Positions 24,593-43,158 are shown, counted from the first letter of the stretch. The stretch: DNA of 64,000 nucleotides from an uncultured Gemmatimonadota bacterium (GCA_964626665.1 CAZVGK010000017.1:1-64000); one strand, 5' to 3'. Translations and numbers: made by a program. Notes: a model not told the origin generated them from the sequence alone.

Positions 24593-24748
24593 TGTGCCTG
24601 GTGCGAAAGTTTAGAGCCCCTGATTTATCAGGAGTCCGAAGAGAATGCTTTTCAGTCTGTCCCACAAAAAATGTCAGGTGAGCAACTAACCCCTATTTTG
24701 GGGGAGTAAAAATGAGGGTTTTGGCACTGAGAAATCCCGGAGTTAAAT

Positions 24749-25582
24749 ATGGCTACATTTGAGCTTGGTTCAACTACAGCCAAAGGTGGTTTTGCCAACG
24801 AAAAGGCTGTTTGTAATAAGTTTAATAGTTGGGAAAACGATAATGAGGCTCAAATTTGGCTCAAGATCATGGGATATAATCCAAAAGAAATAGAGTCTGT
24901 GGAGGCGATTCAAATACCAACTCGGATGAAAAGAAAAGATGTTGATCAATTAGGATTAAAGGAGAGTTATGAGGAACTGATGAGATTTAAAAAGTCAGAC
25001 GCTCAAATAAGGATTGTGATTACTATTGGAAAGATAGTAAAGATTGAAAACCTATCAATGAAGAAAGCAAACTCAGACGCAGATTATAATCAGGTTGATA
25101 AAAGATGGGTGGGAACATACCAAGAAATATGGAAATTTGACGATGATGTAGCATTTGGGCTTAAACTTTTTACAGGAGAGATTAACCATGCTTCTTATCC
25201 TGAGATAGTCAAAAACAAGGTGTTGAGAGACAGGAGAAGGATGTTCCTTGATGAACTTCCAGATGATTTAAGGTTTAAAATTCTAAGCTTCTTCACTGAG
25301 AACAAAATCCTTGTGGTTACAGATATCCTGAAAGGCAGAGGAGGTCTATCTGCCAACTGGTTGTTAGTGACAAGATATAACAGGGAAGATGACAACACTA
25401 CATGGATTCTAAAGGATATCAATACAGCAATGAACTTCTTTGGTTCTGGAGAAGTAAGGTTGTCGCCCCGAGGAAGTCTTTACATTGGGAAGATTACTAT
25501 GCAGAGGAAAGGTGGTACTCCAGATCCAACGAAGTTACAATTCAAAATAAAACCATGTGAGTTATTTAAATTGGAGAAATGA
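24749..25582 (+). CDS. Type II restriction endonuclease, HinP1I-like
   Basis: ELGSTTAKGGFANE, EAQIWL..MG, NQVDKRW, RRMF, DILKGRG, LSPRGSL, TMQRKGG, LQFKIKP mirror R.HinP1I motifs as recalled. Confidence 0.82.
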   Translation: MATFELGSTTAKGGFANEKAVCNKFNSWENDNEAQIWLKIMGYNPKEIESVEAIQIPTRMKRKDVDQLGLKESYEELMRFKKSDAQIRIVITIGKIVKIENLSMKKANSDADYNQVDKRWVGTYQEIWKFDDDVAFGLKLFTGEINHASYPEIVKNKVLRDRRRMFLDELPDDLRFKILSFFTENKILVVTDILKGRGGLSANWLLVTRYNREDDNTTWILKDINTAMNFFGSGEVRLSPRGSLYIGKITMQRKGGTPDPTKLQFKIKPCELFKLEK

Positions 25583-27474
25583 ATATGCTCCTCTTAGCAA
25601 AAGTGAAATTTGATTTAAGAGATCCAGACGAACTTTACTTTGCTCAAAGGGAAATAGATAGTTTATTGGGCGAAAAAACGAAGTTTATTAGAACCATTGC
25701 ATCCCTTGTTAAAGCGGAACCGTTCAAGTTGCTTGATGATGAAGTCATTCATTTGATGACTCGATTAGTTTATATGGGTGAAGGGCAAGGATATTTAGCA
25801 AAGATACCGATTCAAGAGATAGTAAGCATAGTAAAAAAGGCAACTTTTTTCAGAGAGATTTATGTGATTTTCAAGGCAAAAAATAATATTGAAGTATTGA
25901 AAGGCTTATTTAAAAAGGTAGGTATAACAATTATCCCTGGACAATTGGAGGAAGAAAAAATATATCCAAGTCCTTATACACAGATTTTCTTAAAGAACGT
26001 ATCGGAAAATAGTAAATTAGTAGCAATTAGATTTTTGCCTTTCCAAACACTTTTTGAATATGCAACGGAGGTAAAGAAACTTCCAGCAGCAGTATTCCGT
26101 CCTAAAAATAGCAAGAACTGGACAGAATACTTTAAGGAGAAAGAAAATGGAATAGAAAAAGGTATAAAAGAATTACTTGAACATATGAAAATGGGTCATT
26201 ATCGTTCGCCCCACTTTGGACTTGGGAAAAATCATGTGGGTGACTTTGTAGACTGGGCATCTACTGACCTGAGAAAACCCTTTCTTCATTACCTCCATAA
26301 ATACAAAGGAAAGGGCGACCCAAGAATATCTCGTGCTTTGATAAATTTGTTACATGTGAAGGAAGGAGATACAATCCTCGACCCTTTTGCAGGTTCAGGA
26401 GCATTTATTGCTGATGCCCCCACTATGGGATTAAATGCTATCGGTATAGAAATTTTGAATATAGGGAAGATGATTGCTGAGGTTAAATGTAATTTAGGTA
26501 TTAATATCGCAAATTTACGGAACTCCATAATCAAATTATTTGAATCTATAGATGGCATGCTTTTCAAACAAGATATAAAGGATGAGCTCATAGAGACAAA
26601 GGAGAAAATTAGAAAAAACACTGGCAATGGTAGAGCTTATGAGAATATCAGCTCACATTTAGCAAAAATTATACTTTTAAAAAAGGGAATAGAAAAATTA
26701 GATGATACAGAAGTAAAGACATTTCTTCTAACTCTCTTGAGTCAAAAGATTGTGGAATATTCCGAAAAAAGGAGAGGATGGGATGTTATCAATACCTTCA
26801 AATCTTATGTTGAGGATAGATACTTAACTTTGTGTGCCACCAAAAATCTTGCGAGAATACTTGGTGTGAATCTTAGTGGAGGGAAAGTCACAATAATCAA
26901 AGGCGATTCAACTAATATGTCAATGATCGAAAATAATTCTATCGATGGAATGCTAACCTCTCCTCCTTATTTTGATGCATTAAACTATATCGGGAATAAC
27001 AAGGTTTCAATTCTAATACTAGATTTAGATGAAGATCTTACCTGGGAATCCACGAAACAATTTTATGAAGCAAAACACAGAGACGAAGGACGGCATGAAA
27101 GATTGCCGTTCTTTGTCAGTGATAGATATTTTTCTGTTCAATTGCCTCCCTCAAGTTTGAAGCTTATAAAACTGCTCCAAGAATCTCGTAGGGTTTATAA
27201 ATCAAAGGTAGTTGAGAATTATCTGAAGATGATGAAGCTTTCATTTGAAGAGTGTCACCGTGTTTTACGCAATGGCAAGTATTACTTGATGGTGGTTAGC
27301 AAATATCATAGATGGACCATAAATGGGCACGAACAAACGATCGAAACATCATCCATACTGGCAGATCTAGGAAAATCTGTAGGCTTTAGAGTAGAAGATG
27401 TCATTGAACATGGCTTATCAAAGGCCGATAAAGGTAAGATCGGGGTAGAGAACATACTGGTTTTCCAAAAATGA
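25579..27474 (+). CDS. Amino-DNA methyltransferase (probably N4-C) with long N-terminal extension
   Basis: Motif I DPFAGSG precedes motif IV TSPPY; ATGA overlap with the endonuclease. Confidence 0.85.
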   Translation: MNMLLLAKVKFDLRDPDELYFAQREIDSLLGEKTKFIRTIASLVKAEPFKLLDDEVIHLMTRLVYMGEGQGYLAKIPIQEIVSIVKKATFFREIYVIFKAKNNIEVLKGLFKKVGITIIPGQLEEEKIYPSPYTQIFLKNVSENSKLVAIRFLPFQTLFEYATEVKKLPAAVFRPKNSKNWTEYFKEKENGIEKGIKELLEHMKMGHYRSPHFGLGKNHVGDFVDWASTDLRKPFLHYLHKYKGKGDPRISRALINLLHVKEGDTILDPFAGSGAFIADAPTMGLNAIGIEILNIGKMIAEVKCNLGINIANLRNSIIKLFESIDGMLFKQDIKDELIETKEKIRKNTGNGRAYENISSHLAKIILLKKGIEKLDDTEVKTFLLTLLSQKIVEYSEKRRGWDVINTFKSYVEDRYLTLCATKNLARILGVNLSGGKVTIIKGDSTNMSMIENNSIDGMLTSPPYFDALNYIGNNKVSILILDLDEDLTWESTKQFYEAKHRDEGRHERLPFFVSDRYFSVQLPPSSLKLIKLLQESRRVYKSKVVENYLKMMKLSFEECHRVLRNGKYYLMVVSKYHRWTINGHEQTIETSSILADLGKSVGFRVEDVIEHGLSKADKGKIGVENILVFQK

Positions 27475-27492
27475 TAAAGTTCGACTCAAACT

Positions 27493-27551
27493 GAAGAAGA
27501 AGGATTTGAAGTATTGGAAAAGTAGTTTCCGATAATTTTATGGACATCCCC
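27493..27551 (+). mobile_element. Family A element, right end only
   Basis: AAGGATTTGAAGTATTGGAAAAGTAG...TAATTTTATGGACATCCCC matches the 3' ends of the other copies. Confidence 0.8.
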
Positions 27552-27641
27552 TCATCCAGGCAATAGAGGGAAACAAGATACTGGTCATTTTTAAACTGCC
27601 GGTCGAATCTCCGTTTCAGGAGATATGAAGGAGAATTAAAT

Positions 27642-29156
27642 ATGACTCGTGCTTTGACGCCCTATGAGGAACGAAACGAATACTATGCCACGATACAGCT
27701 TGGCAGGGATGTAAAAGCTCAAACAGAACTCATTAGTAGGCAGACACGGGAACTAGTTGCTACACACCTTGCCTCAGCCAATGGAATCATTGCCAGCCAA
27801 GAGAGAGTTTCGGAAGGCATAGATGAAATTTCTTACAGAATTGAAGACGTCGCAGAAGGTATTTATGGCCTAAAGGCGGCTTTTGAGTGGGGTATTGATG
27901 AAGTTGTCTGGCAGATAGAACAAAATAGAGAAGTTTTAAAAAATATATTAGAAGCTATAACCAAGCCACTTGATACGCAGGCGAAAGAACTGAGACGGCG
28001 TGCGGAAAAAGCTTATGCAAATGGGTGGATCGATGACGCTTTAGATGACTTTTTGGAATCGGAAAAAAAGAACAGGTATGATTTTGTGGTTCACATCAGC
28101 TTAGGGCATATCTATCTTTTTCACGAGCACAGCAACGCAAAAGCCTTAGAGTATTATGAAAAAGCGGTTAAATATGCCAGACCTGAGTCAAGTTATTATA
28201 CAAGCTATGCCTTAATCCACATAGCCTTTATAAAGTATCTCGAAAAACAGGTCGAGGAGACCGAACGTTATACAAAGGAAGCAATCCAGCTTAGTCCAGA
28301 CTTTACTGAGGCGCTTTATCGGAATGCACAGTACAACGCTGTTTTATTTAACGCTGACAAAGCTATCCCTTCTCTCGAAAGGGCAATTAAAATAGATGTC
28401 AACTACTGCGAGAAGGCAAACAATGAAAAAGAATTCGATGAAATAAAAGCAGATGTAAAAAAACTGTTTGAAAAACTAAGAAGAGAAGAAAAGAGTAAGG
28501 TTGACAGCAGATACAAAACTTTTAGAGAAAGACTAAACGCATTTAATGATCTTAAGAATCAAGTCAAACCTGAAGGCATTACAATGGCCGTAAATACACA
28601 GCTTGAGAACTATATGCAGAGGGTAGAGACCCTGATTCAACGAAACAGCTACCGCGACTATCTGGAAGCCGGGAAAATTCTCTCAAAGAGTGAAGATTTG
28701 CTAGTGCAAGAAATATCCAGTCTACGGAAAAAAGTTCAAGATAAAAGAGAAGAATGTAATGATTCAATAAAAGAATTTGAGACCGCGCATCGGCAGAGAA
28801 AAGAGGATTTTCAGGAACGTTTTTGGTTGTTTTTGTATTTTCTACCTTTAGCTGGTCTCCTTCTTTATCTTGCCATAATAGGACCTGGAGAAAAGAGTGG
28901 TACAGCTGAAGTCATTTTTGCTCTTATAATGGCCGCCGTTCCTGTTTTAAACTGGATTGTGTGGATACTTCTTATAAAAAACGACCCCGTTCTCTGGATA
29001 ATGACGATCGCATGTATTGCAGGTTATTGGATGATTTACGCTGTGCTGGCATCCAGAATTAGCAGTAACATAGAAAATTATAGAACGAGGATAAGACGCC
29101 TCGAAAGGATAGAGGAGATTTCTAGGGATATCGAAGGATATCGAAAGAGGTCTTAG
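27642..29156 (+). CDS. TPR-repeat / coiled-coil protein with C-terminal membrane segments
   Basis: SD AAGGAG; TPR-like ALEYYEKAV, EAIQLSPDF.EALY, LERAIKID; hydrophobic C-terminal stretches. Confidence 0.7.
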   Translation: MTRALTPYEERNEYYATIQLGRDVKAQTELISRQTRELVATHLASANGIIASQERVSEGIDEISYRIEDVAEGIYGLKAAFEWGIDEVVWQIEQNREVLKNILEAITKPLDTQAKELRRRAEKAYANGWIDDALDDFLESEKKNRYDFVVHISLGHIYLFHEHSNAKALEYYEKAVKYARPESSYYTSYALIHIAFIKYLEKQVEETERYTKEAIQLSPDFTEALYRNAQYNAVLFNADKAIPSLERAIKIDVNYCEKANNEKEFDEIKADVKKLFEKLRREEKSKVDSRYKTFRERLNAFNDLKNQVKPEGITMAVNTQLENYMQRVETLIQRNSYRDYLEAGKILSKSEDLLVQEISSLRKKVQDKREECNDSIKEFETAHRQRKEDFQERFWLFLYFLPLAGLLLYLAIIGPGEKSGTAEVIFALIMAAVPVLNWIVWILLIKNDPVLWIMTIACIAGYWMIYAVLASRISSNIENYRTRIRRLERIEEISRDIEGYRKRS

Positions 29157-29185
29157 TCGTGGCCTTTGACAGATGATAGTAGATA

Positions 29186-29465
29186 GGGCGTCCATTAAAT
29201 TATAAATTGACAGGGAAAATCCTTTTTGGGGCTTCAGGCAGCGCCAAGCACGAATTGAAGCAGGAAAGCACTTCCAATAGGGCAAGCTCCGAGTGAATTT
29301 TGCAATCGAGCGGTTAGGGGACTTGGTGTAAGTGCAATAGCTCTTGCTAAGAAGCTGGGGTTTTCCCGTCCGCGGTGAGCATCTCTGTGAAGGGGGGAGG
29401 AAATAGCCAAAGAAAAATGATTTGAAGTATTGGAGATGGAGTTTTTCATAATTTTATGGAAGTCC
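29186..29465 (+). mobile_element. Family A miniature element (internally deleted RAYT-like Y1 transposase gene with terminal inverted repeats)
   Basis: GGGCGTCCATTAAATTA...TAATTTTATGGAAGTCC; remnant RQARIEA plus GVSAIALAKKLG...VSISVK. Confidence 0.8.
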
Positions 29466-29482
29466 TTCCATCTCCTTATACC

Positions 29483-29680: not shown

Positions 29681-30115
29681 GTGGATGTGAGCATTACACC
29701 AGATTTTATCCATATTGAAGTCAAAAAACAGAGTTACGAGATTTCGCTCCATGCAGATGATGAAAGAGTTGCCGAGGCTTTAACTATCTCTCAACTGGAG
29801 TTTGCCCTATTGAATTGCGAAATTATAGAACAATACTCCAATGATCCACGAGGAGAAAGTTGCTTGGCGATGGGCCTCACACCTGAAAAGACACCGGTTC
29901 ACATTCATCCTATGTGGAAATCCCTTCGGACTTTCGCTTCTCATCTGGCGAGAAAATATGGTGATTGTTTCTACTTATGCCTCATGAAGTCAGGCGGCGA
30001 GGCCGTTTACTTAGCTTTGAAGATGCCCTTATGGGCGTCTGTACCCAATCTTAAGAGCGGGAACCTGTCTTGCATTTTCAAAAGGGCCGAAACCACTAGA
30101 GGTCTCTTCCTATAG
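29681..30115 (+). CDS. DUF4258-like protein, probably truncated or chimeric after ...TPVHI
   Basis: SLHADDE...EIIEQYSNDPRGESCL..G.....PVHI signature; the remainder does not resemble the family and no partner gene follows. Confidence 0.6.
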   Translation: MDVSITPDFIHIEVKKQSYEISLHADDERVAEALTISQLEFALLNCEIIEQYSNDPRGESCLAMGLTPEKTPVHIHPMWKSLRTFASHLARKYGDCFYLCLMKSGGEAVYLALKMPLWASVPNLKSGNLSCIFKRAETTRGLFL

Positions 30116-30162
30116 ATTCATTCTCGTCCTGTTAGTTGTCGGTAAGATTAAGGGGGACAGTG

Positions 30163-30585
30163 ATGAAAGTCGCCTCAATTATGGCCGAGAGAGTCCTTAA
30201 GGTAAGAATGGATGATTCTATCGGAACAATCCGCAATATCTTGGAGCACGTTGAGTTTCACCATCTTTTGGTGGTGAAAGGCCGAGAATTGGTTGGTATC
30301 CTATCGGATCGCGATGTTTTAAGGGCGATCAGTCCGTTTCTGGGCACGCTCTCCGAGGAGCAACGTGACATGAGCATTCTGAACAGGAAAGTGCATCAGA
30401 TTATGACTCGGAACCCGATCACCGTAGACAAAGATACCAGCATAGAAACCGCCGCGAGCCTACTGTTAGAGAATAACATATCATGCCTCCCGGTGGTCTC
30501 ACCTGAGGGTTGGATCGAGGGAATCGTGACATGGAAAGACATTCTCAGGTCCTACGTGGGGGAAAATAAAACATTACCTGACTAA
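30163..30585 (+). CDS. CBS-domain pair protein
   Basis: MKVASIM...HHLLVV...GILSDRD; QIMTRNPITV...ISCLPVV...GIVTWKDIL. Confidence 0.88.
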   Translation: MKVASIMAERVLKVRMDDSIGTIRNILEHVEFHHLLVVKGRELVGILSDRDVLRAISPFLGTLSEEQRDMSILNRKVHQIMTRNPITVDKDTSIETAASLLLENNISCLPVVSPEGWIEGIVTWKDILRSYVGENKTLPD

Positions 30586-30647
30586 AATAGCTGACAGAAG
30601 AGAGAGACCTTTAAGAGAATGAAAATCTTTCGAGCCATAGCCAAGAT

Positions 30648-31301
30648 TTGAAAGAGAAGAAAACAAGAGAAAAACCCTCATGGGCCACAATAATAATTTC
30701 GCTCTTTGCAGTTGGCCTTTCATGTTACGCAACATACATCGCATCACAAGCGAGAAAGGATGCTCGAGCCGTCGCGCACCTCGATTTCCGTCCCCTGTTG
30801 CGTATTACGACACAACTTCAAGAGAGCAAAGGCGCTCCCCCACATTTGACTATTTGGAACATGGGGCCGGTCGATGCGATTCAACTGGAAGTCCAACTTT
30901 TCGCTCTTATTTTCTCTCCCGGACGTCAGAAAATCAGGACTATCGTGACCGGATCAACCGAGGAAAAGAGAATAGAGAAACTATCCACCTGGAATCGTGT
31001 ATCAGTATCACTCCCTGACCACTGGCTAAATGTCCAGGCTCGGACCGCAAAGCCAATGGAAAACAACGTCATGGAAATCCGGCTGATCTATCGGCGCGAG
31101 GCTGACCTAAGACAATTTGTTGAACGCGCTTTCTACTTCGTAAACCCAGAAGGCCAGTGGGTATCCGAAAACGATGGCTCTCTTTCCAAGGAAGTTTACA
31201 GTCCCATAATAAAAGCCGCGAACCAGACTCCTGCTGTTGGGCTCTTGTGGCCATTGTTCGATCCACTTCATCCCGCTGAGGATGTGATGGACAATTTTTA
31301 G
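30648..31301 (+). CDS. Hypothetical protein with N-terminal membrane anchor
   Basis: TIIISLFAVGLSCYATYIA followed by RP.L...N.G...A pattern. Confidence 0.6.
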   Translation: MKEKKTREKPSWATIIISLFAVGLSCYATYIASQARKDARAVAHLDFRPLLRITTQLQESKGAPPHLTIWNMGPVDAIQLEVQLFALIFSPGRQKIRTIVTGSTEEKRIEKLSTWNRVSVSLPDHWLNVQARTAKPMENNVMEIRLIYRREADLRQFVERAFYFVNPEGQWVSENDGSLSKEVYSPIIKAANQTPAVGLLWPLFDPLHPAEDVMDNF

Positions 31302-31320
31302 TAAACCTGAGGATATAACC

Positions 31321-31518
31321 AAGAAGTTCAAGCTCCTCATCGCCATGGCCTTAGATGCATCTCACGGAGCTATTCAGGGGGTGAAGGCATTGGCTCAGTT
31401 AGCAATGCAAGCTGGGGCCACGAAAGAGGAGATCGCCGAGGCATTGAGAGTTGTCCAATACATCAGTGGGGTAGGCAGCGTTTACACAGCCGCGCATGCT
31501 TTTGAGGAGTTATTCTAA
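31321..31518 (+). pseudogene. 5'-truncated carboxymuconolactone decarboxylase (CMD/AhpD)-family fragment
   Basis: KKFKLLIAMALDASHG...AMQAGATKEEIAEALRV; no in-frame start after the TGA at 31285. Confidence 0.7.
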
Positions 31519-31835
31519 TTTGAGTTAAGAGAATGTCCTTCTATTCATTTATTTGACCCCTAGATTTCCGCTTTGATATTTGTTATTACTACTGGCAGCC
31601 CTTAGCAAACCACTTCTCAATTTGAACCTGGTTGAAAAGCTGGTTTGTTGGGAAGGATAAAAGCCTTGGGTTTTTGGGGTTGGCTGATTTTGCTTGACAG
31701 GGGAAAAAAAGTTTATAGATTGGTTTGTGAAGTGTTGCCTTATGGAACTTATATGGAACAAGATAACCCGTGATTGGTTTAAATAAGGATGAGTAAACGA
31801 ACTCTGGAGATTCGAGACATGGCTGGGAGTAAAAT

Positions 31836-32624
31836 TTGCCGTTCCCCGAAGTAGAAAGAGTAATCTACAAAAGAAATCCTCTCGACCGAGTGATTTGTCA
31901 GTTGAGGTTTCCTCCTATTCTGAAAATAGATGCTGAAGTACCATCTGAATTTCAGAATAGAGTGCGAAAGGATTACCCAGGCTTCTCAGAGAAATGGAAG
32001 GGGGAGGTTCCTTGGGAGGTGAAAGGGCAAATCCCACCTGAGGTATCAAGTCAAATACTACAATCTTCTGGGAACAAGAACTACGAGTTCTCTTCGGATG
32101 ACGGCCAATGGAAGGTAAACTTAACACGCACTTTTATTGCTTTAAGTGCAAACAAATACAAAAGGTGGGAAGGATTCAAAGATAGACTATCTGGCCCTTT
32201 GAGTGCTCTAATTGATGTTTATTCCCCCGCACATTTCTCAAGAATCGGGTTAAGGTATATAGATGTAATAAGGCGGTCAGTATTAAACTTAGGTGATGTT
32301 GGCTGGAGTGAGTTACTTCAACCATACATATTAGGAATACTAGGTACACCAGAGGTGGGTAAGCATGTTCAGGCTTTCGAAAACGCACATGAAGTTCGTC
32401 TGTCGGATGGAGAAAGTATGGCTAGACTAATAACAAGGTTCGTAGAGCACACTGGTGATGGGGAAATATGCTATATGATTGATAGCGATTTCTACAACAC
32501 TAGCAAGACGGGTATCGATGCCACGATAGAAAAACTCGATTATTTCAACAAACGTGCATCTAGACTCATTCAATGGTGCATAACTAATCGCTTACATCAA
32601 GCCATGGAGCCTCAGATACTATGA
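31836..32624 (+). CDS. TIGR04255 family protein
   Basis: YKRNPL..VICQLRFP, Y..WE.F, RIGLRYID, YMIDSD. Confidence 0.85.
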   Translation: MPFPEVERVIYKRNPLDRVICQLRFPPILKIDAEVPSEFQNRVRKDYPGFSEKWKGEVPWEVKGQIPPEVSSQILQSSGNKNYEFSSDDGQWKVNLTRTFIALSANKYKRWEGFKDRLSGPLSALIDVYSPAHFSRIGLRYIDVIRRSVLNLGDVGWSELLQPYILGILGTPEVGKHVQAFENAHEVRLSDGESMARLITRFVEHTGDGEICYMIDSDFYNTSKTGIDATIEKLDYFNKRASRLIQWCITNRLHQAMEPQIL

Positions 32625-33235
32625 TAGACCATTATCAGGAAACCAATTCTGTAGTATTTGCGTTGCCTCATGAGTTTAGGACTTGTTCGAAGATAGCTGC
32701 GAGTTCTGGGCCATGTATTCCCAGTAAAGAGTACGAAGTTAAAACCAAGCAACTCAGTGCGCGCCCTTTCTTTATTGAGCAACTCGATGCACATCCCCTT
32801 TTTACTGAGCCCTCAAATGAAACAATTGGTGGAAGCTTCAAAGCACGCTTCTTGCTACTACCAGAGTATTCAAGTTTAGTAGGATGCGCATTGGATACTA
32901 TCCACCAAACGGAGAATCAGTATGTCGCCAAAGAGGCTAGAAAATTATTATCAATTATCCAGGGGGCGATTGCGTCCTTTAAACAATTCGGGGTTGATCT
33001 AGACTACCTTCCCCCATTGCAAGCCTTCAATGTTGATGATGGATCTGTCTTAATTGAATGGATATTTAGTAACTTTAGGATCGGATTCAATATTGAGCCA
33101 AACTCAGAAGATTCAGGTTGGTATTTGGTTTCAAACGAGAACTTGGGGGAAATCAGTGCGTCTGGATATACTTCAAGTATAGACATTACGCTGATAGTTT
33201 TCTGGCTTTTGAATTTTGCTCTCTCAAATTCCTGA
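32621..33235 (+). CDS. Hypothetical protein (middle gene of TIGR04255 module)
   Basis: ATGA overlap with upstream gene; DDGSVLIEW motif in C-terminal domain. Confidence 0.65.
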   Translation: MIDHYQETNSVVFALPHEFRTCSKIAASSGPCIPSKEYEVKTKQLSARPFFIEQLDAHPLFTEPSNETIGGSFKARFLLLPEYSSLVGCALDTIHQTENQYVAKEARKLLSIIQGAIASFKQFGVDLDYLPPLQAFNVDDGSVLIEWIFSNFRIGFNIEPNSEDSGWYLVSNENLGEISASGYTSSIDITLIVFWLLNFALSNS

Positions 33236-34559: not shown

Positions 34560-34576
34560 TATTTTTCACGATGAGG

Positions 34577-34705
34577 GGTTATGCAGATCATATGCGATTC
34601 GATTATCGCAAGGCACAAAGGCATCTGAAGCGATTTGTGGAGTTTGGCCTGCTTGAGATGGTTGGCGCTGGCCCGGCCACGAAATACAGGATCTTGAGGC
34701 AGTGA
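34577..34705 (+). pseudogene. 5'-truncated winged-helix C-terminal fragment
   Basis: YADHMRFDYRKAQRHLKRFVEFGLLEMVGAGPATKY; lies between two family A elements. Confidence 0.5.
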
Positions 34706-34754
34706 TCACGACAAAAATCCCGACAAAATGTCGTGATCAAAGGAACATAAAGAC

Positions 34755-35032
34755 GGGCATAAAATTATAAATTGAAGGAGAGAAATCTTTTTGGGCTTCA
34801 TGCCGTGCGAAGTATGCATTGACATGGTGAAGTCCCCCAAAATGGTGCCAGCCTGCAGTGGATTTTGCTATTGCGCGGTGAGGGAACTTGGTGTTGAGTT
34901 GCAACAGCTCTTGCTAAGAAGTTGGGGTTCCCAGCTTGCAGGGAGCATCTATGTGAAGAGAGGGGAGAAAATAGCCAAAGAAAAAGGATTTGAAGTATTA
35001 GAAAGGTAGTTTTTTCAATTTTATGGACATCC
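34755..35032 (+). mobile_element. Family A miniature element
   Basis: GGGCATAAAATTATAAATTGA...AATTTTATGGACATCC; encodes MPCEVCID joined to SPKMVPACSGFCYCAVRELG...VKRGEKIAKEKG. Confidence 0.82.
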
Positions 35033-35067
35033 GTCCCCCTTATCGTCCTAAAAGAGGAGGTGGTTAA

Positions 35068-35289
35068 ATGCATAAGATAACTGCATATATTGAAAAGGAC
35101 CCAGAAACAGGGTTGTATGTGGCTGTTGTCCCAGGGATTCCTGGCGTCCATACTCAAGCAGAGACTTTGGATGAACTGCAAAAGAATCTTAAAGAAGTGG
35201 TTGAATTATGCTTAGAAGAAATGGACCCTGAGACTAAGAAGCAATTACCTGATTTTGTGGGTATCCAGCAGGTTGAGGTGGCAAGTTGA
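35068..35289 (+). CDS. hicB: HicB family antitoxin (short form)
   Basis: YVAVVPGIPGVHTQAETLDEL..NLKEVVELCLE. Confidence 0.88.
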   Translation: MHKITAYIEKDPETGLYVAVVPGIPGVHTQAETLDELQKNLKEVVELCLEEMDPETKKQLPDFVGIQQVEVAS

Positions 35290-35519
35290 GCCGAATTCAA
35301 ATTATAGATACTAAGGAAATGGAGAAACTACTGTTTCTGTTGGGGTTTAAGAAAATCCGCCAGAAAGGGAACCACGCTTTTTACAGGCATCCCGATGGAA
35401 GAATTACTACTCTTCCTCACCATAGAGGGAGAGTCTTGGCGCGTCCTTTAATAAGAGAAATCCTAAGAGAGATAGAAATTAGTGTTGATGACTACAATCT
35501 ATACTTGAAGAAGATATAG
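35286..35519 (+). CDS. hicA: HicA family mRNA interferase toxin
   Basis: LGF...RQKGNH..YRHPDGR.TTLPHH...L.R.IL; overlaps hicB. Confidence 0.88.
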   Translation: MSRIQIIDTKEMEKLLFLLGFKKIRQKGNHAFYRHPDGRITTLPHHRGRVLARPLIREILREIEISVDDYNLYLKKI

Positions 35520-35891: not shown

Positions 35892-35939
35892 TGGACAAAA
35901 GCGTCTACATTTATCATAATGTGTATACAGTTTTGTCCA
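35892..35939 (+). promoter_or_regulatory. abiEi promoter with overlapping inverted-repeat operator
   Basis: TGGACA-N17-CATAAT inside TGGACAAAA...TTTTGTCCA. Confidence 0.6.
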
Positions 35940-35950
35940 ATGAGGTTTTT

Positions 35951-36553
35951 ATGAATAAAAAAGTTGAGATGATATACAAAGTGTTTAGGAAATATGGTTG
36001 TTTTGCCAGAACAAGAGATATTCTGGCAGTCGGAATTCATCGCCGTGATATAAAAAGAATAAGGGACAAGGGAAGGATAATACGGGTAAAAAGAGGGTTT
36101 TATCGTCTCTCAGAGATTCCCGTTATTTCCAATCAAGGGTTTATTGACCTTGCCTGTGCTGTGCCTGAAGGAGTTATCTGTCTGCTCTCGGCTCTCTCTT
36201 ATCATGAGCTTACTACTTTCAATCCCTCAATCATATCGATGGCCCTCTGCAGGGGGACAAGGCGGCCTAAAATTGAATATCCACCTGTTCAGTTCTATCA
36301 TTTTTCTACCAAGCAATTTGAGGCAGGAATTGATGAGATAGAAATCAAAGGTCATAGGGTTCGTATCTACTCTCCAGAGAAAACTATTTGTGACTGTTTT
36401 CGATATCGTAACAAACTGGGGCTTGATATAGCTAAGGAAGGTCTATCTGAATATCTTAAGCGCAAGGATCGCAATCTGGAGAAACTGCTTGAATATGCTG
36501 AAATTTGCAGAGTGAAGAGACTTCTTGAGACCTGGATTAATGCTATGATTTAG
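35951..36553 (+). CDS. Type IV toxin-antitoxin AbiEi family antitoxin (orphan)
   Basis: N-terminal wHTH RVKRGFYRL, GVICLLSALSYHELT, YSPEKTICDCFRYRNKLG. Confidence 0.85.
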   Translation: MNKKVEMIYKVFRKYGCFARTRDILAVGIHRRDIKRIRDKGRIIRVKRGFYRLSEIPVISNQGFIDLACAVPEGVICLLSALSYHELTTFNPSIISMALCRGTRRPKIEYPPVQFYHFSTKQFEAGIDEIEIKGHRVRIYSPEKTICDCFRYRNKLGLDIAKEGLSEYLKRKDRNLEKLLEYAEICRVKRLLETWINAMI

Positions 36554-36575
36554 GAACAAAATAGTAGAGTGTGAA

Positions 36576-36873
36576 GGGGGCAACCCTCAGAAATAGACAT
36601 TGACCGTGATCGTATGTCTCCTCCAGTGTCTCGAAGGTGCTGTGGAAAGATTCGGCCTGCTGGTCAGGCTTTCTGCTTAAGGCCCAATCATTATCATATG
36701 AGGAGTTGCTGAGTAGGTGTAAGGATGCCCCAGCCACTTCAGTTGGGGGGAGGAACTGGGGGAACAAATGTGAGCTATGTAGCACAAAAGGTGAAAGAGC
36801 GTCTCAGTTGGGATGGCAGTTCAGGGAATTGGTTAAGAAGTGGATAAGAATCTATTATCTGAGGGCTGAACCT
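36576..36873 (+). mobile_element. Family B miniature element (degenerate)
   Basis: GGGGGCAACCCTCAGAAATAGA...ATCTATTATCTGAGGGCTGAACC; body shared with 42561-42897. Confidence 0.78.
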
Positions 36874-36942
36874 AATTCCCCTGACTTTCCTGTTTCACGT
36901 CTTTCGTCTTGTTAACTAACCTCATAGAAATATTCTCAAATC

Positions 36943-38673
36943 ATGGAACGAAACAACAAACCAATGCTTCCAAAAGAGCTTAGGTGTCCAAATTGTGGAG
37001 TTGAATTGGAATTGGAACACCGGGAAAGGGTAGAAAGAAGATTTGTTTGCCCGTCTTGTCAAAGTGAAATTGATTTGAGAGAAGAATTATTAGAAGAAGA
37101 AACTGATATCCGTCGTCAACCGGACGTTTTTACTCAGTTACAAAAAGCAATCTCTTCTATATTTTTGTCAGTCCAACCGTTAGAAAGGAAAATCCTCATC
37201 ACATTAGCAGGTATAGTGATTTATAGGTTAGGGTTCTATATCCCTGCACCAGGAATAAATACAGGTTTATTTAACGATTTTTTCTATAATACTACTAGCG
37301 CTTTATTGACCCATTCGATTTTCTCCTTAGGAATTAGGCCGTATATAATTGCCTCTATTTTGGTCATTCCGTTAGGCGGGGTTATCCCATGCCTAAAACG
37401 CCTTCGTGACGGGCCTGTTGAACAGCGCTATCAATTCGATATGATAGTTTATATTGCCACTATCATCATAAGTGTACTTCAAGCCGAGAGAGCAGCGGAG
37501 GTTCTGAGTAGCATAGATATCCTCGGCCGCCCTCTTATAAATTCTGGGTGGGGTTCCCACCTGATATATGTTCTTTCCCTAACCTCAAGCACAATGCTAT
37601 TGGTGTGGATTGCAGATCAAATCACTAAAAGAGGCATCGTGAATGGCGTAGTGCTTTTTTTCCTAATCGATATTCTTGCTCAAGTGATACCTTCAATTAT
37701 AAGGATTATAAGACGATTGAGCGTACCTACTGAAGGGGTTGATCCACTAATGAAAGGCATATTGTTACTTATAGTATATATCGCATTGATAGGGTTTTCG
37801 ATCGTCATAGTAAAGGCCAAAAGAAACATTCCACTCAAGCGGATCAGTCGGAGAGTAAAAAATGAAAAAAGCAGGGATACCGCACTTCCTATTCGGATAA
37901 ACAAAGTTGGAATCTTCCCCATTGAAATTGGGCAGAAGATCTTGTTTATACCAACTTTCTTAATCATTGCCTTCCCTAAAGGCATTTCCCCAGGATGGCA
38001 GGGCAACTTGTTAGATCCTAAGAATTGGCCTTACTGGCTGGGCTATGGAATTTCAATAAGTTTGTTAACTTATCTGTATTCTGTAATGAGCTATGATTCA
38101 AAAGGATTAGCAAATAAAATTGAGAGATATAGGTTTAAGATTGTTGAGGGAGATTTAATTGGAGATGTAGCTAAGTATCTTCATAAAATAGTAGAAACGA
38201 CTATTATACCGGGTGCCATCTTTCTATGTGGCATTGCTATAATTCCGTTTGTAATAAGTGTTTGGTTTGATGTAGGTTTAAACAGTTTTTTGGGGTATTT
38301 TCAACTTTTTGTTATTGCTTCCTGTATCGACATTTACCGCCAATTTCGATGGGATTTTGAAATAACTAAGGGAGTTAAAAACAACAAAAACTTGGGAAAT
38401 GTCGAATGGGTCCCTGTATTCACTGGACAAACGGTTATTGAAGGTGAAATGGTGCGGGAAATCCTTTATGAGTCTGGGATCGGATCATTTATATCCTCAA
38501 ATCAAGTGATTAGTGCATTAGGTACCCTCGCGTTCTGGGGAACCAGGCATCCTACTTATCCAACTCTCAAAAGCTATCAAAGGTTATTGGGACAAGAGCT
38601 AATGGAAGTCTTAGTTCCTTTGAATCGTGTGGAAGAAGCTGAGGAAATTTTAAAATCTAGGGGAATAGTTTAA
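36943..38673 (+). CDS. Divergent SecY homolog fused to an N-terminal Zn ribbon and a C-terminal DUF2007-like domain
   Basis: CPNC/CPSC; KILITL...YRLG..IP.PGIN, SIFSLGI.PYI.ASI, VWIADQITKRGIVNG, LPIRIN..GIFP; C-terminal VF......E.EM...L...GI...EVLVP....EEA.EIL. Confidence 0.8.
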   Translation: MERNNKPMLPKELRCPNCGVELELEHRERVERRFVCPSCQSEIDLREELLEEETDIRRQPDVFTQLQKAISSIFLSVQPLERKILITLAGIVIYRLGFYIPAPGINTGLFNDFFYNTTSALLTHSIFSLGIRPYIIASILVIPLGGVIPCLKRLRDGPVEQRYQFDMIVYIATIIISVLQAERAAEVLSSIDILGRPLINSGWGSHLIYVLSLTSSTMLLVWIADQITKRGIVNGVVLFFLIDILAQVIPSIIRIIRRLSVPTEGVDPLMKGILLLIVYIALIGFSIVIVKAKRNIPLKRISRRVKNEKSRDTALPIRINKVGIFPIEIGQKILFIPTFLIIAFPKGISPGWQGNLLDPKNWPYWLGYGISISLLTYLYSVMSYDSKGLANKIERYRFKIVEGDLIGDVAKYLHKIVETTIIPGAIFLCGIAIIPFVISVWFDVGLNSFLGYFQLFVIASCIDIYRQFRWDFEITKGVKNNKNLGNVEWVPVFTGQTVIEGEMVREILYESGIGSFISSNQVISALGTLAFWGTRHPTYPTLKSYQRLLGQELMEVLVPLNRVEEAEEILKSRGIV

Positions 38674-38686
38674 ATATAAAGACATC

Positions 38687-38892
38687 GGGGTCATTAAATA
38701 CCAATTGATAATGGAAATCTCAATGCACAATGAGCCAATTCGATGTGTGTGCAACAGCAGCTTTTGCTAAGAAACTGAGGCTTCCCCAGTCTGCGGTGAG
38801 CATTTCTGTGAAGAGGAGGGAGAGAATAGTCAAAGAAAAAGGATTTTAAAGTGTTGGAAAAGTAGTTTTTTTACAATTTCATGGACGTCCCC
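38687..38892 (+). mobile_element. GGGGTCA left end plus family A 3' half and right end
   Basis: GTGCAACAGC...GCTAAGAA...CAATTTCATGGACGTCCCC. Confidence 0.75.
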
Positions 38893-38971
38893 GTCCCCCT
38901 TCTTTTTCCCTTGCCCAGCCCCATATCAAGAGTGGAGTTGCATTAGCTGGAATACCAAGAGGTCAAATCAG

Positions 38972-39547
38972 ATGCCCGTACAGTATGTCAATAGAAAGGG
39001 GCAGACATATTATCTTCATCAAGGTACCATTAAGAGTGGTAAGCTAAGATATTTCTTCTCCATGAAGGGTGGGGGAACCCTGGTTGACGTCATACCGGGC
39101 GGTTTCGAAATCTACGAGAACCCAAATGCCCAAGTCTTCTTACGGAAAGTTCAACCCAAGATCATAACCGATGATGAAATTGCCATCGTAGAAATAGGGA
39201 TGAAGCGATTCTCTCAGTTACAGTATTACCAAATAGATGTGAAGAAGGGTGTCATCAGTGTGTTTGTGGCAAATCAGGATGTTGATCGCTTGTCAGATAT
39301 TCTGAGCTTTACTCCCAGAGCGAGAGATGCAAGCATTCAAGATTTACTCCCCCAACTCATATCCTATTCACCGATGCTTCGATTCGTTCTAATCGATAAG
39401 GAGAAGCGAGTGTTTGTTGCTCAGAGGTATTGCTTCCTGGGTTCGATTGATGATTGGATTGGCATAGGCACGCCGGACACCCTACAAAATCTCGTAAAAA
39501 GATACGTGAAACATTTGGGGCAAGATTCCTACTACGAGCTATCTTGA
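38972..39547 (+). CDS. Hypothetical protein, cassette-borne
   Basis: 191-aa ORF with SD GAGG, followed immediately by an attC-like site. Confidence 0.7.
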   Translation: MPVQYVNRKGQTYYLHQGTIKSGKLRYFFSMKGGGTLVDVIPGGFEIYENPNAQVFLRKVQPKIITDDEIAIVEIGMKRFSQLQYYQIDVKKGVISVFVANQDVDRLSDILSFTPRARDASIQDLLPQLISYSPMLRFVLIDKEKRVFVAQRYCFLGSIDDWIGIGTPDTLQNLVKRYVKHLGQDSYYELS

Positions 39548-39552
39548 ACCGC

Positions 39553-39683
39553 GCCTAACGAGTTGCTGCAGCCGACCCCGCTGTCGTGGCTGTTCTTGAG
39601 GTTGCGTCGCGGTTGCAGGGTGTCTTTCTGTGGGTCATCCCGTCGTCAAATCTGTATAGCGGCTGAATTTCAGGTCGCTCTGC
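39553..39683 (+). other. attC-like recombination site (degenerate R')
   Basis: GCCTAAC...TGCAGCCG...CGGCTGAA...; R' reads GCTCTGC rather than GTTRRRY. Confidence 0.5.
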
Positions 39684-39706
39684 AGGGAGAGAATAGGGAA
39701 TTGATT

Positions 39707-39937
39707 ATGGCAAACAAGTCCTTTGATGATTTGCTCGTTGTGGGAACACCGATCTACTTGATAAAGTCTTGGAGCCCCTGTTACAAATGCGGTTCCGCAG
39801 AGCCTGTTGTGGCACTCGCTTCGCGGAACATTAGCAAAGTTCCAGGAGATGATGTGTGCATTCTCAGCAACATTCAAGAAATGCCTGAAGAGATACTTCG
39901 GCTTATCCAGTCAAAATTAACGAAGGCCAGCCCTTGA
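39707..39937 (+). CDS. Short hypothetical protein with one CxxC (probably a truncated cassette gene)
   Basis: SD AGGGA; lies between two attC-like sites. Confidence 0.45.
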   Translation: MANKSFDDLLVVGTPIYLIKSWSPCYKCGSAEPVVALASRNISKVPGDDVCILSNIQEMPEEILRLIQSKLTKASP

Positions 39938-39951
39938 CATTGAACATTTTC

Positions 39952-40013
39952 GCCTAACCAAGGCATGCAACGGACGCGGCTTACTGCTACGCCGGTGATG
40001 CCTGTTGTTAAGT
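39952..40013 (+). other. attC recombination site
   Basis: R'' GCCTAAC; L'' GGCAT(G)CAACGG pairing with L' CCGGTGATGCC leaving an extra G; R' GTTAAGT. Confidence 0.75.
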
Positions 40014-40041
40014 GCAAAATCTAAGAGGGATGTAGGACTAA

Positions 40042-40549
<508 letters not shown>

Positions 40550-40591
40550 ACTCGCGCCCCGTTAAGCCGCCGCAGGTTTGGATAAGGGAGA

Positions 40592-40873
40592 GGGGCATAA
40601 AATTATAAATTGACAGGAGGGGGCCACCTTTTTCTTTATGCCATGCAAAACATGCATTGACGTGGTGAAGCATCCCCAAATGGTGCCAGCCTGCAGTGGA
40701 TTTTGCTATTGTGCTGTGAGGGACTTGGTGTGAGTGCAACAGCTCTTGCTGAGAAGCAAAGGCTTTCCCAGCCTCGGATAAGCATCTCTGTGAAGAAGGA
40801 GAGAAAATGGCCGAAGGAAAAGGATTTGAAGTATTGGGAAAGTAGTTTTTTATAATTCTATGGATGACGTCCC
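40592..40873 (+). mobile_element. Family A miniature element
   Basis: GGGGCATAAAATTATAAATTGACAGG...TAATTCTATGGATGACGTCCC; encodes MPCKTCID plus VPACSGFCYCAVR. Confidence 0.82.
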
Positions 40874-40910
40874 TTTATCCCTTCACTGTTAGTTACAAGG
40901 TCAGGAGATT

Positions 40911-41050: not shown

Positions 41051-42323
41051 CCTGGTGTCCTGTAAGAGCTTGAAAGGTCAACCTATCCCAACCTGATAGG
41101 TGGCCAATTCCTCCATAAACCAGATATGGTCTGTTATCTCCGCTGCCATTGCTGGACTACGGTGTTGATAACTACCAGATTCATCCTTTATCCTGAGGCT
41201 CCTGTGATCCCAACAGAAGTTGTAATAGCTAACAGAGAGCCAACTCTGGTTCACCCCGTTAGGTATGAAATTATCTAACGGGGTGAATATGATCAGCAAC
41301 CTTCTTTGAAAACTCATAGGTCTTCCGAGCCTTTCTGGCATTGAGATGCCGATCAGTGCCATTATAGCGTTCAATGAAAGCAACATTGACCTTCTTGGAG
41401 ACAGTTGACTCCTGCAGTGCCTGCTGAAGGGCCTCTCGGGTGCCAAAGACTAAACGAATCTCTACCTTTACTACTCTACCTCTCTCTCGCCTCTTACACA
41501 CGGTGGCAAAGAGAAGATCAGGAGGAGCCACCTTGTAAGGCTTCTTAGGCCGTCCAGGCTTTCCGGTAGGCTCTGGGCTTACCTCTTTTCCATAGGTTTC
41601 CAGGATGCATTTAGGGTAAAGCCCGTACTCATCGGCTGTCATGAGAGCTGGAGGCTGGCCACCATTAACCCGTAAAGAGAAGTCCTTGACCAATTTCCTT
41701 GTGTTCTCCTGGGTCCTTTTGCCCGGAACCAGAGAAACAACCAGCTTCTCTTTGCTGGCCAAGGCTACATGATCCCATTGATCGCCCTTATTGCCCTGAG
41801 CCTTCTCCTGTTCACTGAGATGTTTCTCTTTTTTTCCCCACAAAACTCCATTTCTCATCAAACTGGACTTCGTCTATAGCCAGATCCCGCACCAACTCAT
41901 CATGTAGGGCCTTGGCATGAGGGCCTGCTATCCTGTGTAGCCGAGAAACAGTATCTTTGGAAACCTCTACTAAACGACCTGTCTTGCGGATGCCACAATC
42001 CTCACCTAAGTGCTCCAGGATGCTGATGGCCTTTTCCAAAGGGAGACGACTTCCTGAAAGGGCAGTGTGGCTCCGTTCAGAGAACCGTTTGCCACAGGTT
42101 TTACACTGAAGCAAGCGAATGGGATTATTCTTTTCATATGTCTGTTGAACCATGATATTTCCATACCCTCTTTTTCCGTAATCTGAGCAGCCAGGATTAA
42201 TACAGCAAAATTCACTTATGTCTTTCATACTGAGCCTCCTGGTATATAGTAAGTCTTTCTAAAACTACATCTTAACTATACATCAGAAGCTCTAATCTTG
42301 TCAAGCCCAATTATGACACCAGG
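41051..42323 (-). mobile_element. IS1-family insertion sequence with disrupted transposase
   Basis: Ends CCTGGTGTC/GACACCAGG; InsA-like CxNxxC..CxxC + HTH (41812-42228), DE.WSFVGKK, TAD, ERYNGTDR, YYNF..H.SL, SPAMAA..TDH.W. Confidence 0.85.
41252..41285. mobile_element. 34-bp palindromic insertion within the IS transposase
   Basis: CACCCCGTTAG...CTAACGGGGTG; removal rejoins KKVADH to QSWLSVSYYNF in frame. Confidence 0.85.
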
Positions 42324-42347
42324 AGAAATTCCGAAACGTTAAATTCC

Positions 42348-42560
42348 CTATGGTTGGCTTAAGATAAGGGGGCCATTGGTGGTGATGGCAATTGTGTTTT
42401 CAAAGTGGGCAGAGAGGCTGCTATCAGCGGTTACCGCGGTCCACCCATCGGAGAGAAGCTCCGCCCTCCAGGTGCCCATATTTACCATTGGCTCCAAGGC
42501 CAAAACCATACCGACCTTGAGAAAAGGCCCGCGATGGGGGGGACCATAGTTGGGTAAGTG
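42348..42560 (-). pseudogene. map: 3' fragment of methionine aminopeptidase
   Basis: Manual translation HLPNYGPPHRGPFLKVGMVLALEPMVN...DGWTAVTADSSLSAHFENTIAIT..GPLILS. Confidence 0.88.
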
Positions 42561-42897
42561 GAGGTCAACCCTCAGAAAATAGATATTGACATTCTTGGGT
42601 GCCCTATTATTCTGGTAGTGGGCAAGCCGTTATGGTTTGTTGGGATCTTCATTGTCCCTGCAGGATACACACTTATGGTAAGGCCTTTGCGGCTGGAGTG
42701 GCCTGGAGCGCTCTATCACCTTACAGGGTGAGGAAACCAAGGGCAGGTGATCTTTGGCAATATTGGAATTTGGAGGGATTGTGGGAACAAATGTGAGCTA
42801 TGTAGCGCAAAAGGTGAAAGAGCACCTCAATTGGGATGGCCAGTTCAGGGAGTCGTGTGAGAGGGCCGAAAAAATCTATTTTCTGAGGGTTGACCCC
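42561..42897 (+). mobile_element. Family B miniature element (internally deleted RAYT-like Y1 transposase gene)
   Basis: Perfect 22-bp inverted repeats GGTCAACCCTCAGAAAATAGAT; internal MVRPLRLEWPGALYHLTG plus a C-terminal HTH-like remnant. Confidence 0.85.
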
Positions 42898-43158
42898 AAT
42901 TTTGCTCTCACCAATTCTGCTTCATGTGGGATTGGCCTACCGCTTGTTTTAAACTGTGAGAATCGCCTAATCCCAAGATGATAAGGCGACCCTCAGTTGA
43001 AGGATCATAATTAGTCACCAAGGTCTCAAGTAACGGAGCCGTCAGGATAATTTTCCTAACGGCTTCGTTTTTGTTTGTGGGAGTTCAACTTAGAAGCCCA
43101 GAGACAGATGTTACCTAGGTGATGTCTCCCATCATTAAGGGGTGAGGCAAACATTTCC

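Follow-up and report, generated by a model that had tools for sequence, protein, structure and literature searches.

A 64,000-nt stretch of DNA from an uncultured Gemmatimonadota bacterium (GCA_964626665.1 CAZVGK010000017.1:1-64000; hereafter the window) was analyzed, in which an island of 18.6 kb lies at 24.6-43.2 kb between a pcrB-like and a carD-like gene. It is a lineage-specific accessory island with a GC content of 35-47%, compared with 50-56% in its flanks, and its cargo genes are separated by short, co-oriented elements of two families, named A and B. By sequence comparison, these elements are decayed, non-autonomous copies of two families of TIRtrons, an already named class of mobile elements. 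Our best overall explanation, to which a probability of about 0.55 is given, is that the element ends served as scaffold joints at which cargo was gained, lost, and exchanged, most likely through joining by the TIRtron transposase (TIRYT), in an array that is probably now fossil.

The genome that contains the window (G000, 3.17 Mb) was compared with two congeners (G001 and G002), with two unrelated metagenome-assembled genomes (G041, a member of the Desulfobulbaceae, and G042), and with seven metagenome contigs carrying the pcrB locus (L161-L167), which were obtained through a scan for the PcrB protein. L161 belongs to the window's own organism, and the other six have 87-90% protein identity. 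The features of the island and its borders are listed below by window coordinates and strand.

23810-24592, +: pcrB-like gene, left core flank (PF01884 at 4.2e-45); kept in G001, G002, and the metagenome relatives; homology stops at 24585
24749-27474, +: cargo 1, an R.HinP1I-like restriction endonuclease (24749-25582; PF11463 at 1.9e-55) and a DNA methyltransferase (25579-27474; PF01555/PF01170)
27491-27555, +: family A solo right end, 65 bp, no left end (nhmmer model positions 231-295, E 7e-11; terminus with 1 mismatch)
27642-29156, +: cargo 2, a 504-aa TPR-repeat protein (TPR_2 match)
29182-29474, +: family A mini-element A1, both inverted termini, frameshifted helix-turn-helix (HTH) remnant (nhmmer E 1.7e-91; termini at 29186 on - and 29448 on +)
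29681-33660, +: cargo 3, a DUF4258 protein, a CBS-domain protein, and several open reading frames (ORFs) without family (PF14076, PF00571)
34015-34281, +: tyrosine-recombinase (phage integrase family) fragment, 3'-truncated, ending at the next joint (PF00589 at 8.7e-12, profile positions 36-124 of 172)
34290-34562, +: family A' mini-element, variant left end and A-type right end (nhmmer E 3.7e-42; homology confined to the element)
34563-34743, +: short cargo remnant between two joints, an open frame without start (from translation; the ORF at 34483-34656 has no Pfam match)
34744-35041, +: family A mini-element A2 (nhmmer E 4.3e-93; nearest copy at 11478 of L164)
35068-35519, +: hicB-hicA toxin-antitoxin (TA) pair (PF15919, PF07927)
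35921-36553, +: AbiEi-type antitoxin/regulator, no partner gene downstream (PF13338 at 5.5e-10)
36557-36904, +: family B mini-element B1 (nhmmer E 1.3e-95; terminus at 36850-36871 on -)
36943-38673, +: 576-aa protein with a SecY domain (PF00344 at 1.1e-46)
38685-38900, +: family A mini-element, diverged left end and internal deletion (nhmmer positions 137-297, E 2.7e-32)
38972-40549, +: 191-aa ORF without family, BrnT toxin (40045-40314; PF04365 at 7.7e-29), and an overlapping downstream ORF without family
40582-40878, +: family A mini-element A3 (nhmmer E 4.7e-94; left end at 40596)
41078-42228, -: broken IS1-like transposase ORFs, the sole minus-strand genes in the island (PF03400)
42542-42914, +: family B mini-element B2, last joint before the core, short N-terminal remnant (nhmmer E 3.1e-107; perfect 22-nt inverted termini at 42563 on + and 42874 on -, 0 mismatches)
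43219-43713, +: carD-like gene, right core flank (PF21095, PF02559); kept in G001 and G002 with other upstream neighbours

The right end of family A was scanned as an 18-mer pattern at up to three mismatches, and the family was mapped genome-wide with an nhmmer profile. The pattern had six matches in the window against 0.06 expected, a number reached in none of 100 shuffles. Five of them are right ends on the + strand, ending at 27550, 29466, 34559, 35033, and 38891, and the remaining match (29185-29202, - strand) corresponds to the left-hand inverted repeat of the copy at 29.2 kb. A 2-base insertion kept the sixth right end (~40873) from being detected by the pattern; it was recovered by nhmmer, which identified 13 family A matches in the genome, six in the island and all six on +. 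All six co-oriented right ends that a preliminary description of this DNA had listed were therefore recovered by one scan or the other. Its two family B elements are likewise real, both on + with terminal inverted repeats of their own, which gives six A and two B copies in one orientation.

A repeat analysis assigned the right ends to elements of ~285 bp with inverted termini, which measure ~20-32 nt in A1, A2, A3, and B2 (22-32 nt for those specific to family B); A1, A2, and A3 are full copies, and the other three A copies are shorter. In size and structure the copies agree with miniature inverted-repeat transposable elements (MITEs): they are 207-298 bp long, with inverted termini, broken frames, and the 13 genome-wide matches of family A. 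The copies in this genome differ from one another by 13-26%. No target-site duplication was seen at the copies read, which are few cases outside any systematic test, in agreement with the preliminary description, and a 5'-truncated gene tail of the kind that it described after right ends is found at 34563-34743. It had reported ends mixed between families at 34295 and 38687; the copy at 34290, with its variant left end and A-type right end, belongs to a distinct lineage present in two other genomes, and the left end at 38685 is a diverged one. An outward promoter in the right ends was not supported, as a consensus scan flagged none (39 promoter-like sites against 34.6 expected in the region).

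All Pfam-matching ORFs at 24.7-41.0 kb are on +, as had been described, and the IS1-like fragments at 41.1-42.2 kb are on -. One-directional cargo is a property of the array in this genome and not a general trait, since the relatives and the other arrays described below carry cargo on both strands. The restriction-modification pair of cargo 1 has a GC content of 0.35 and no match in G001 or G002. The SecY-domain protein also has sub-threshold zinc-ribbon matches in its N-terminal part and a sub-threshold DUF2007-like match in its C-terminal part, and a stand-alone SecY paralogue amid defence and TA genes is unusual. The sole RNA-family match in the window, a tRNA-Gln (TTG) at 5515-5588, is unrelated to the island.

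The island locus is a synteny breakpoint among the congeners. Matches of G001 and G002 to the island were limited to small pieces, namely the CBS gene, a hicB fragment, one 135-bp piece, and the repeats themselves. The CBS gene matches G001 merely as a paralogue of a gene on contig C38 of G000, and hence it provides no test of a shared cassette. The hicB fragment also occurs 3' of an A copy in G002, at 87.6% identity. Downstream of pcrB, G002 has a 3-kb mini-island containing two A copies, after which come tatD/ksgA-type genes, and its carD has different upstream neighbours; in G001, contigs break at both island borders. Additionally, G001 (C86, L037) carries the window segment 540-2621 inverted directly upstream of carD, which indicates an inversion of ~43 kb relative to G000 (window ~290-43140) with one break at the right edge of the island.

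Every family A copy examined in the window, the rest of the genome, and the two congeners contains a broken coding remnant that ends just inside the right terminus, with frames that vary between copies. The remnants alone gave nothing meaningful against Pfam and NCBIfam, and a search for longer homologues with a 55-aa remnant had no match. In an exhaustive profile search, in-frame natural pieces were aligned and compared with 1.84 billion proteins; matches numbered 1050 at E<=1e-3 and 123 at 1e-10, and the majority were short proteins matched at the C-terminus. The longer matches included Bac_DnaA_C (PF08299, 17-23 bits) and HTH matches, all sub-threshold, and in one of them (P0020) the sequence before the match looks, in our judgement, like that of Y1 transposases. 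A search with another match (P0018) identified 561 relatives, of which the full-length ones are proteins of 317-329 aa with PF01797, named 'REP element-mobilizing transposase RayT' by JGI. Precomputed annotations place PF08299 and PF01797 together in these full-length relatives, and a C-terminal Bac_DnaA_C/HTH extension is therefore present. The short N-terminal remnant of family B is taken by us to resemble the start of these Y1 proteins. The island itself encodes Y1 remnants only, none of them intact.

The names TIRYT and TIRtron were given by Di Nocera et al. (2013; PMC3733652). A TIRtron encodes a TIRYT transposase of the Y1/HUH type with a DnaA_C-like HTH tail and is bounded by inverted termini (PMC3733652, PMC6006769), and in the classification by Quentin et al. 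(2018; PMC6006769) the TIRYT class falls within HUH subclass 2.1, with its Bac_DnaA_C/HTH tail. Judged by these matches, the family A copies are decayed mini-elements that keep a frameshifted C-terminal HTH remnant of a TIRYT-type transposase. The preliminary description had called the elements miniature and RAYT-like with a Y1 (HUH) relationship, an assignment that the link from the remnant profile to PF01797 proteins bears out, and intact relatives with the same terminus were found in G041 and G042. Within G000, an intact 334-aa Y1 and HTH relative on contig C58 has the layout of family B: terminus, AAATTGACA-like box, gene, and inverted terminus. Two tandem copies of its ~47-bp right terminus block follow the C58 gene (in the region G000:C58:3100-3350, L004). 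The motif GGGGWSAS has been reported for most TIRYT termini (PMC3733652, PMC6006769); the C58 terminus fits it (GGGGTCAG), while the family A tip GGGGACGT fits in part, at six of eight positions.

The family A terminus is a site of ~30 nt that ends in GGACGTCCCC, and it is conserved across phyla. Its exact 19-mer was found in more than 117 stretches of species-representative genomes, which included Thermodesulfobacteriota, NC10, Zixibacteria, Nitrospirota, Pseudomonadota, and others. Across 134 distinct termini, taken from 80 loci in other organisms, the sequence is conserved up to and including GTCCCC, beyond which conservation drops to zero, and no GTAG tag was found. The pyrimidine tail that had been described as a separate feature is accordingly the outer part of the terminus. 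A GTCCC 'stutter', described earlier as frequent, occurred at one of seven island termini, four of 24 genome-wide, and seven of 138 elsewhere (further counts 2/12 and 0/30); it was rejected as a recombination footprint, as it is not general. Among the 80 loci, four forms of the site were distinguished: full-length elements whose termini are separated by ~1.07 kb, inverted doublets with a spacing of 49-290 bp, solos, and same-facing runs of solos, the last confined to two genomes.

In G000, 24 termini were found at up to three mismatches (1, 5, and 0 in three shuffles), seven of them in the 18.6-kb island; two A3 ends were overlooked by the pattern. The others included small clusters on contigs C6 and C11. 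Outside the island, the orientation of A, B, and a diverged subfamily was mixed relative to GC skew and gene direction. A replication-strand rule was hence rejected as a general cause of common orientation, and it does not explain the eight of eight in the island. A second small array was observed at 90-95 kb of contig C2, where three B copies share one orientation and are accompanied by a truncated Y1 gene and a weak, sub-threshold ParE/Phd-like pair; its flanks are core genes, SurA-like and ExbB/ExbD/TonB.

Several further observations concern the surroundings of these sites in G000. A doublet of ~50 bp at G000:C6:69870-69920 has an A-type terminus facing a B-type terminus, within a variable region that includes a DUF2283 pair and SH3-domain genes, and it indicates that ends of the two families do combine. 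Tyrosine-recombinase fragments adjoin A-type termini at four sites (C47:3220-3445, C59:361-620, C5:13700-14632, and window 33922-34281), of which three are 5'-truncated tails just 3' of a right end with no N-terminal half nearby. Several other families of short repeats also reach high copy number: repeats of 170-180 bp (e.g., L022:1639-1809 and L010:1737-1918) match dozens of places on many contigs of G000, and in G002 one such repeat separates the hicB fragment from an A right end.

Comparison of the same locus in related strains revealed joints that are kept and cargo that is not. All six related contigs and L161 carry family A copies downstream of pcrB, and the 21 matches in L161-L167 all share the strand of pcrB; three come from the window's own organism and five from L164. 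Except for the repeats, nothing downstream of pcrB in the relatives matched G000; L164, for example, has minus-strand genes for SH3-domain proteins as well as DUF4238 and AAA_14-DUF4143 cargo. The preliminary description had asked whether sequence following right ends is hypervariable between strains; the cargo at this locus is unrelated among them. In alignments of G000, L164, and G002, homology is confined to the stretch from the left terminus to the right tip, and the DNA that flanks it on either side is unrelated.

In a tree of the 21 copies, the A' element of G000 grouped with the copies at 13155 of L164 and 6975 of L035 in G002 (support 100/100), and A2 grouped with the copy at 11478 of L164 (support 94/91; 85% over 291 nt). 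The identity of these joint pairs, 84-85%, is near the 82-84% of the adjacent core flank. Between G000 and G001, a 3.6-kb indel lies within ~12 nt of an A terminus tip, a replaced segment of 1.3 kb has an A copy at its border, and a synteny break has an A terminus at its border; neither a clean insertion of a mini-element nor an empty site was found in these comparisons, which are few. On the simplest reading of these alignments, the joints would already have been present at the pcrB locus in the common ancestor and were retained while the DNA between them was replaced.

Arrays of the same terminus were also found in the two unrelated genomes. In G041, 21 of 24 termini are on one contig, in two arrays. 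The first array, 9 kb long with 10 of 10 termini on +, has as its first site the left terminus of a TIRYT gene that is intact and encodes 338 aa. Two further termini, on -, stand at the right end of this gene and one cassette past it. The second array, also of 9 kb, lies 24 kb further on and reaches the contig end with nine of nine termini on -. The two arrays thus face in opposite directions, though a single strand carries all the flanking ORFs, including the Pfam-matching ones. In G042, nine of nine termini are on + over 11 kb, up to the contig end. The cargo of the arrays is on both strands and includes PIN/MazE, HepT/MNT, MazF, HicB, DUF4160/DUF2442, AAA_14-DUF4143, and others, and the array flanks are housekeeping-type genes. 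No cargo common to arrays of different genomes was found. All sites in G041 and G042 have ~30 nt in common, subsets within one array share 45-170 nt, and the shared part of many joints is ~30-85 nt.

Two side observations were made on these arrays. In the second G041 array (L159, G041:C5:100000-115478), an ATG that starts an open frame lies within 2-4 nt of the tip at four of the nine termini (10687, 11540, 12418, and 14406), and one of these frames begins, by eye, like a Rossmann-fold enzyme; for some of them, automatic ORF calling favoured overlapping frames on the opposite strand. In G042 (L160, G042:C20), runs of a CTACTGC-like heptamer are found upstream of many termini.

The loci of G041 and G042 were selected for their many terminus matches and give no estimate of array frequency. 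Among 40 relatives of G041, only eight had any terminus and none had more than three; because of these low numbers and the scattered termini of other genomes, the arrays are seen as rare and lineage-specific, yet recurring. Overall, co-oriented joints occur in at least three independent lineages, the joints outlast their cargo, and one array is headed by an intact enzyme gene.

These observations suggest that the termini are places where cargo enters, leaves, and swaps, while the joints persist as a scaffold. A TIRYT enzyme would nick one strand at the tips of two same-facing termini and rejoin them, and the rejoining would release or insert a segment carrying one terminus, with arrays of the form terminus-cargo-terminus, lacking target duplications, as the product. 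IS608 TnpA joins its two ends in this manner. In vitro cleavage of its sites and recombination between them have been reported for the TnpA-REP of E. coli (PMC3333891). One-strand joining of same-facing sites should leave direct repeats of one site without target duplication, whatever the orientation of the genes, and arrays should grow beside the enzyme gene; all of these features are seen. The outcome would be integron-like, with an enzyme and a site unrelated to those of the integron.

The preliminary description had proposed that the ends are recombination joints at which a Y1 enzyme appends foreign DNA. The retained joints with replaced cargo at one locus and the independent solo arrays make it fairly probable that the ends were joints of cargo turnover; that a Y1 enzyme catalysed this turnover is what we infer from the analogy with related enzymes, at odds somewhat below even. 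The array in G000 is probably a fossil and no longer active, because the cognate enzyme is gone and the copies have diverged from one another to the extent given above. Comparative support has in this way turned the gene-capture idea from a guess into a hypothesis that can be tested, short of a demonstration.

Several points weigh against TIRYT-mediated turnover. No enzyme activity, circle, or excision variant was observed, and the four salt-marsh runs supplied contigs only and were uninformative on excision. Joints between different A or B copies did appear in the salt-marsh contigs; their matching sides were 20-34 nt, often with extra letters and at depths unlike the host, and they look like cross-mapping of related copies from other organisms. 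An intact A-type TIRYT gene was not found in G000: the top match there is to a broken copy on C1, and all others belong to different families. Characterised Y1 sites have hairpins, and 11 folds of the terminus had z-scores of -2.4 to +2.2, with no hairpin consistent across sites. Arrays are the exception: five complete or large genomes have 4-10 scattered termini each, and an adjacent array was present at one of seven full-length elements in the fetched loci. At the pcrB locus, the orthology of the joints rests on short alignments, with 12 of 18 inner tree branches lacking resolution, and homology that ends at the termini is also expected of mobile copies inserted independently. Within the island, five of the six A joints are mini-elements with both termini and not solos, and ordinary MITE insertions look alike. 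Homologous recombination at repeats, moreover, predicts much the same pattern at the pcrB locus.

The best surviving alternative, which we regard as unlikely overall, is a passive pile-up, where a hot spot for foreign DNA was built by other means and the A and B copies are MITE-like relics that settled in tolerant gaps, with an orientation due to strand-specific insertion, chance, or shared descent. The predominance of complete mini-elements among the island joints agrees with this, as do the decay of every copy in a genome without the cognate enzyme, the abundance of other short repeat families, the few and scattered termini of most genomes checked, and the integrase fragment and IS1-like debris within the island. 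A replication-strand rule, however, does not account for eight of eight in one orientation when orientation is mixed elsewhere in the genome, and the two arrays of G041 face opposite ways amid same-strand ORFs. The solo arrays of 10/10, 9/9, and 9/9 lack opposite-facing partners, and no clean mini-element insertion or empty site was seen in the cases examined. The joints were also kept across strains while all cargo was swapped, and the replacement of cargo should have removed joints that were passengers. A pile-up may apply to this window, in which both termini are present at most joints, but it is a poor fit to the solo arrays and to the conservation of the scaffold.

Homologous recombination alone, with the mini-elements as portable homology, was considered improbable and ranks lower. 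In this scheme, RecA-type crossovers swap segments for incoming DNA of related strains with the same repeats, and circles with a single copy integrate in the manner of Campbell, with no transposase involved, which suits the lack of an enzyme in G000. Joints of 200-290 bp with 84-87% identity are shared by the same-locus arrays of related strains, direct repeats around cargo are expected, and the 43-kb inversion relative to G001 breaks at the island edge. The scheme is less attractive for G041 and G042, because a shared stretch of ~30-85 nt is short for efficient recombination. It also leaves unexplained how a terminus first came to lie beside unrelated cargo, and why an intact TIRYT element heads an array in G041.

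A test for integron integrases with the TIGR02249 model (cut-off 265 bits) found none above the cut-off in G000, where the best match had 140 bits and the island integrase fragment 32.7 bits. A crude structural attC finder returned no candidates in the arrays; it also returned none beside true intI genes and is thus not validated, having no positive control. The weakest alternative, a decayed integron or attC cluster (CALIN) at which TIRtron-derived elements targeted attC in a single orientation, in the manner of IS1111-attC elements and group IIC-attC introns, draws on the TA-rich, cassette-like arrays beside core genes and on the true integron integrases of G041 and G042 (410, 365, and 354 bits), but an integron origin is very unlikely, as those intI genes are on other contigs with none at or near any array, the attC core words GTTRRRY/RYYYAAC occur within 40 nt of 0-1 of 20 termini in G041 and 0 of 9 in G042, and conservation is confined to the 30-nt terminus.

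The intact C58 copy and, with remnants of the gene, families A and B share with published TIRtrons the layout of a Y1/HUH transposase with a C-terminal Bac_DnaA_C/HTH region and long inverted termini in place of REP hairpins, and TIRtron repeats have been described as moderately abundant families of singles, dimers, and groups (PMC3733652, PMC6006769). Co-oriented terminus arrays with TA and defence cargo, a scaffold with cargo turnover, and a terminus conserved across phyla go beyond TIRtrons as presented in the accessible text of those papers. REPtrons (RAYT/TnpA-REP with REP, BIME, and REPIN sequences) have an enzyme of a related Y1 clade and short sites that occur as singles and inverted doublets; REPs, in contrast, are GTAG-tagged hairpins with hundreds of copies throughout a genome, while the sites described here have no hairpin, number 4-34 copies per genome, and are clustered amid foreign genes.

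The resemblance to integrons lies in small TA-rich cassettes with one same-facing site each, in sites that are conserved and cargo that varies between strains, and, in G041, in an array that adjoins a recombinase gene transcribed away from it. Unlike integrons, the candidate enzyme is a Y1 HUH nuclease and not a tyrosine recombinase, the joints have neither a conserved hairpin nor attC core words, and most joints of the window are mini-elements of 200-300 bp with two termini. The IS200/IS605 elements (IS608, ISDra2) offer a template for terminus-to-terminus joining through Y1 single-strand chemistry, in which both cuts are on one strand and a circular single-strand intermediate leaves no target duplication (PMC6006769). 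They differ in their subterminal hairpins, lack of inverted termini, target of 4-5 nt, and replication-fork orientation, whereas the elements studied here have inverted termini and mixed orientation outside the island. ISCR/IS91 are rolling-circle HUH elements that pick up adjacent genes by end by-pass. Same-facing ends beside unrelated or truncated genes are similar here, as in the 5'-truncated tail at 34563-34743 and the integrase tails on C47, C59, and C5 of G000; ISCR/IS91, however, have Y2 transposases, distinct ori and ter ends, and no inverted termini, and no such gene is present here.

A search of the literature, supplementary files excluded, found no description of such arrays, and in the accessible text of PMC3733652 and PMC6006769 no function or transposition mechanism is given for TIRYTs and TIRtrons, whose repeat families are catalogued. 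The system described here offers a defined 30-nt site that spans phyla, arrays in which this site is the sole sequence shared between TA and defence cassettes, and a locus with kept joints and replaced cargo. If cargo turnover at the termini does not hold, they would still represent an unusually conserved transposon end that is strongly tied to variable islands. Tentatively, and with doubt on balance, TIRYT enzymes and their ~30-nt terminus may be proposed as a second, mechanistically unrelated bacterial gene-cassette platform, where same-facing termini would be joined on single-stranded DNA, segments carrying one terminus excised as circles and reinserted at any other terminus, and arrays of TA and defence cassettes grown beside the enzyme gene, with a spread across phyla through an element whose end is almost invariant. 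The island of the window would then be the fossil of one such array. If so, cassettes would be captured by HUH single-strand chemistry instead of a tyrosine recombinase, which would bear on how TA and defence islands are assembled and may provide a compact tool for single-strand DNA integration.

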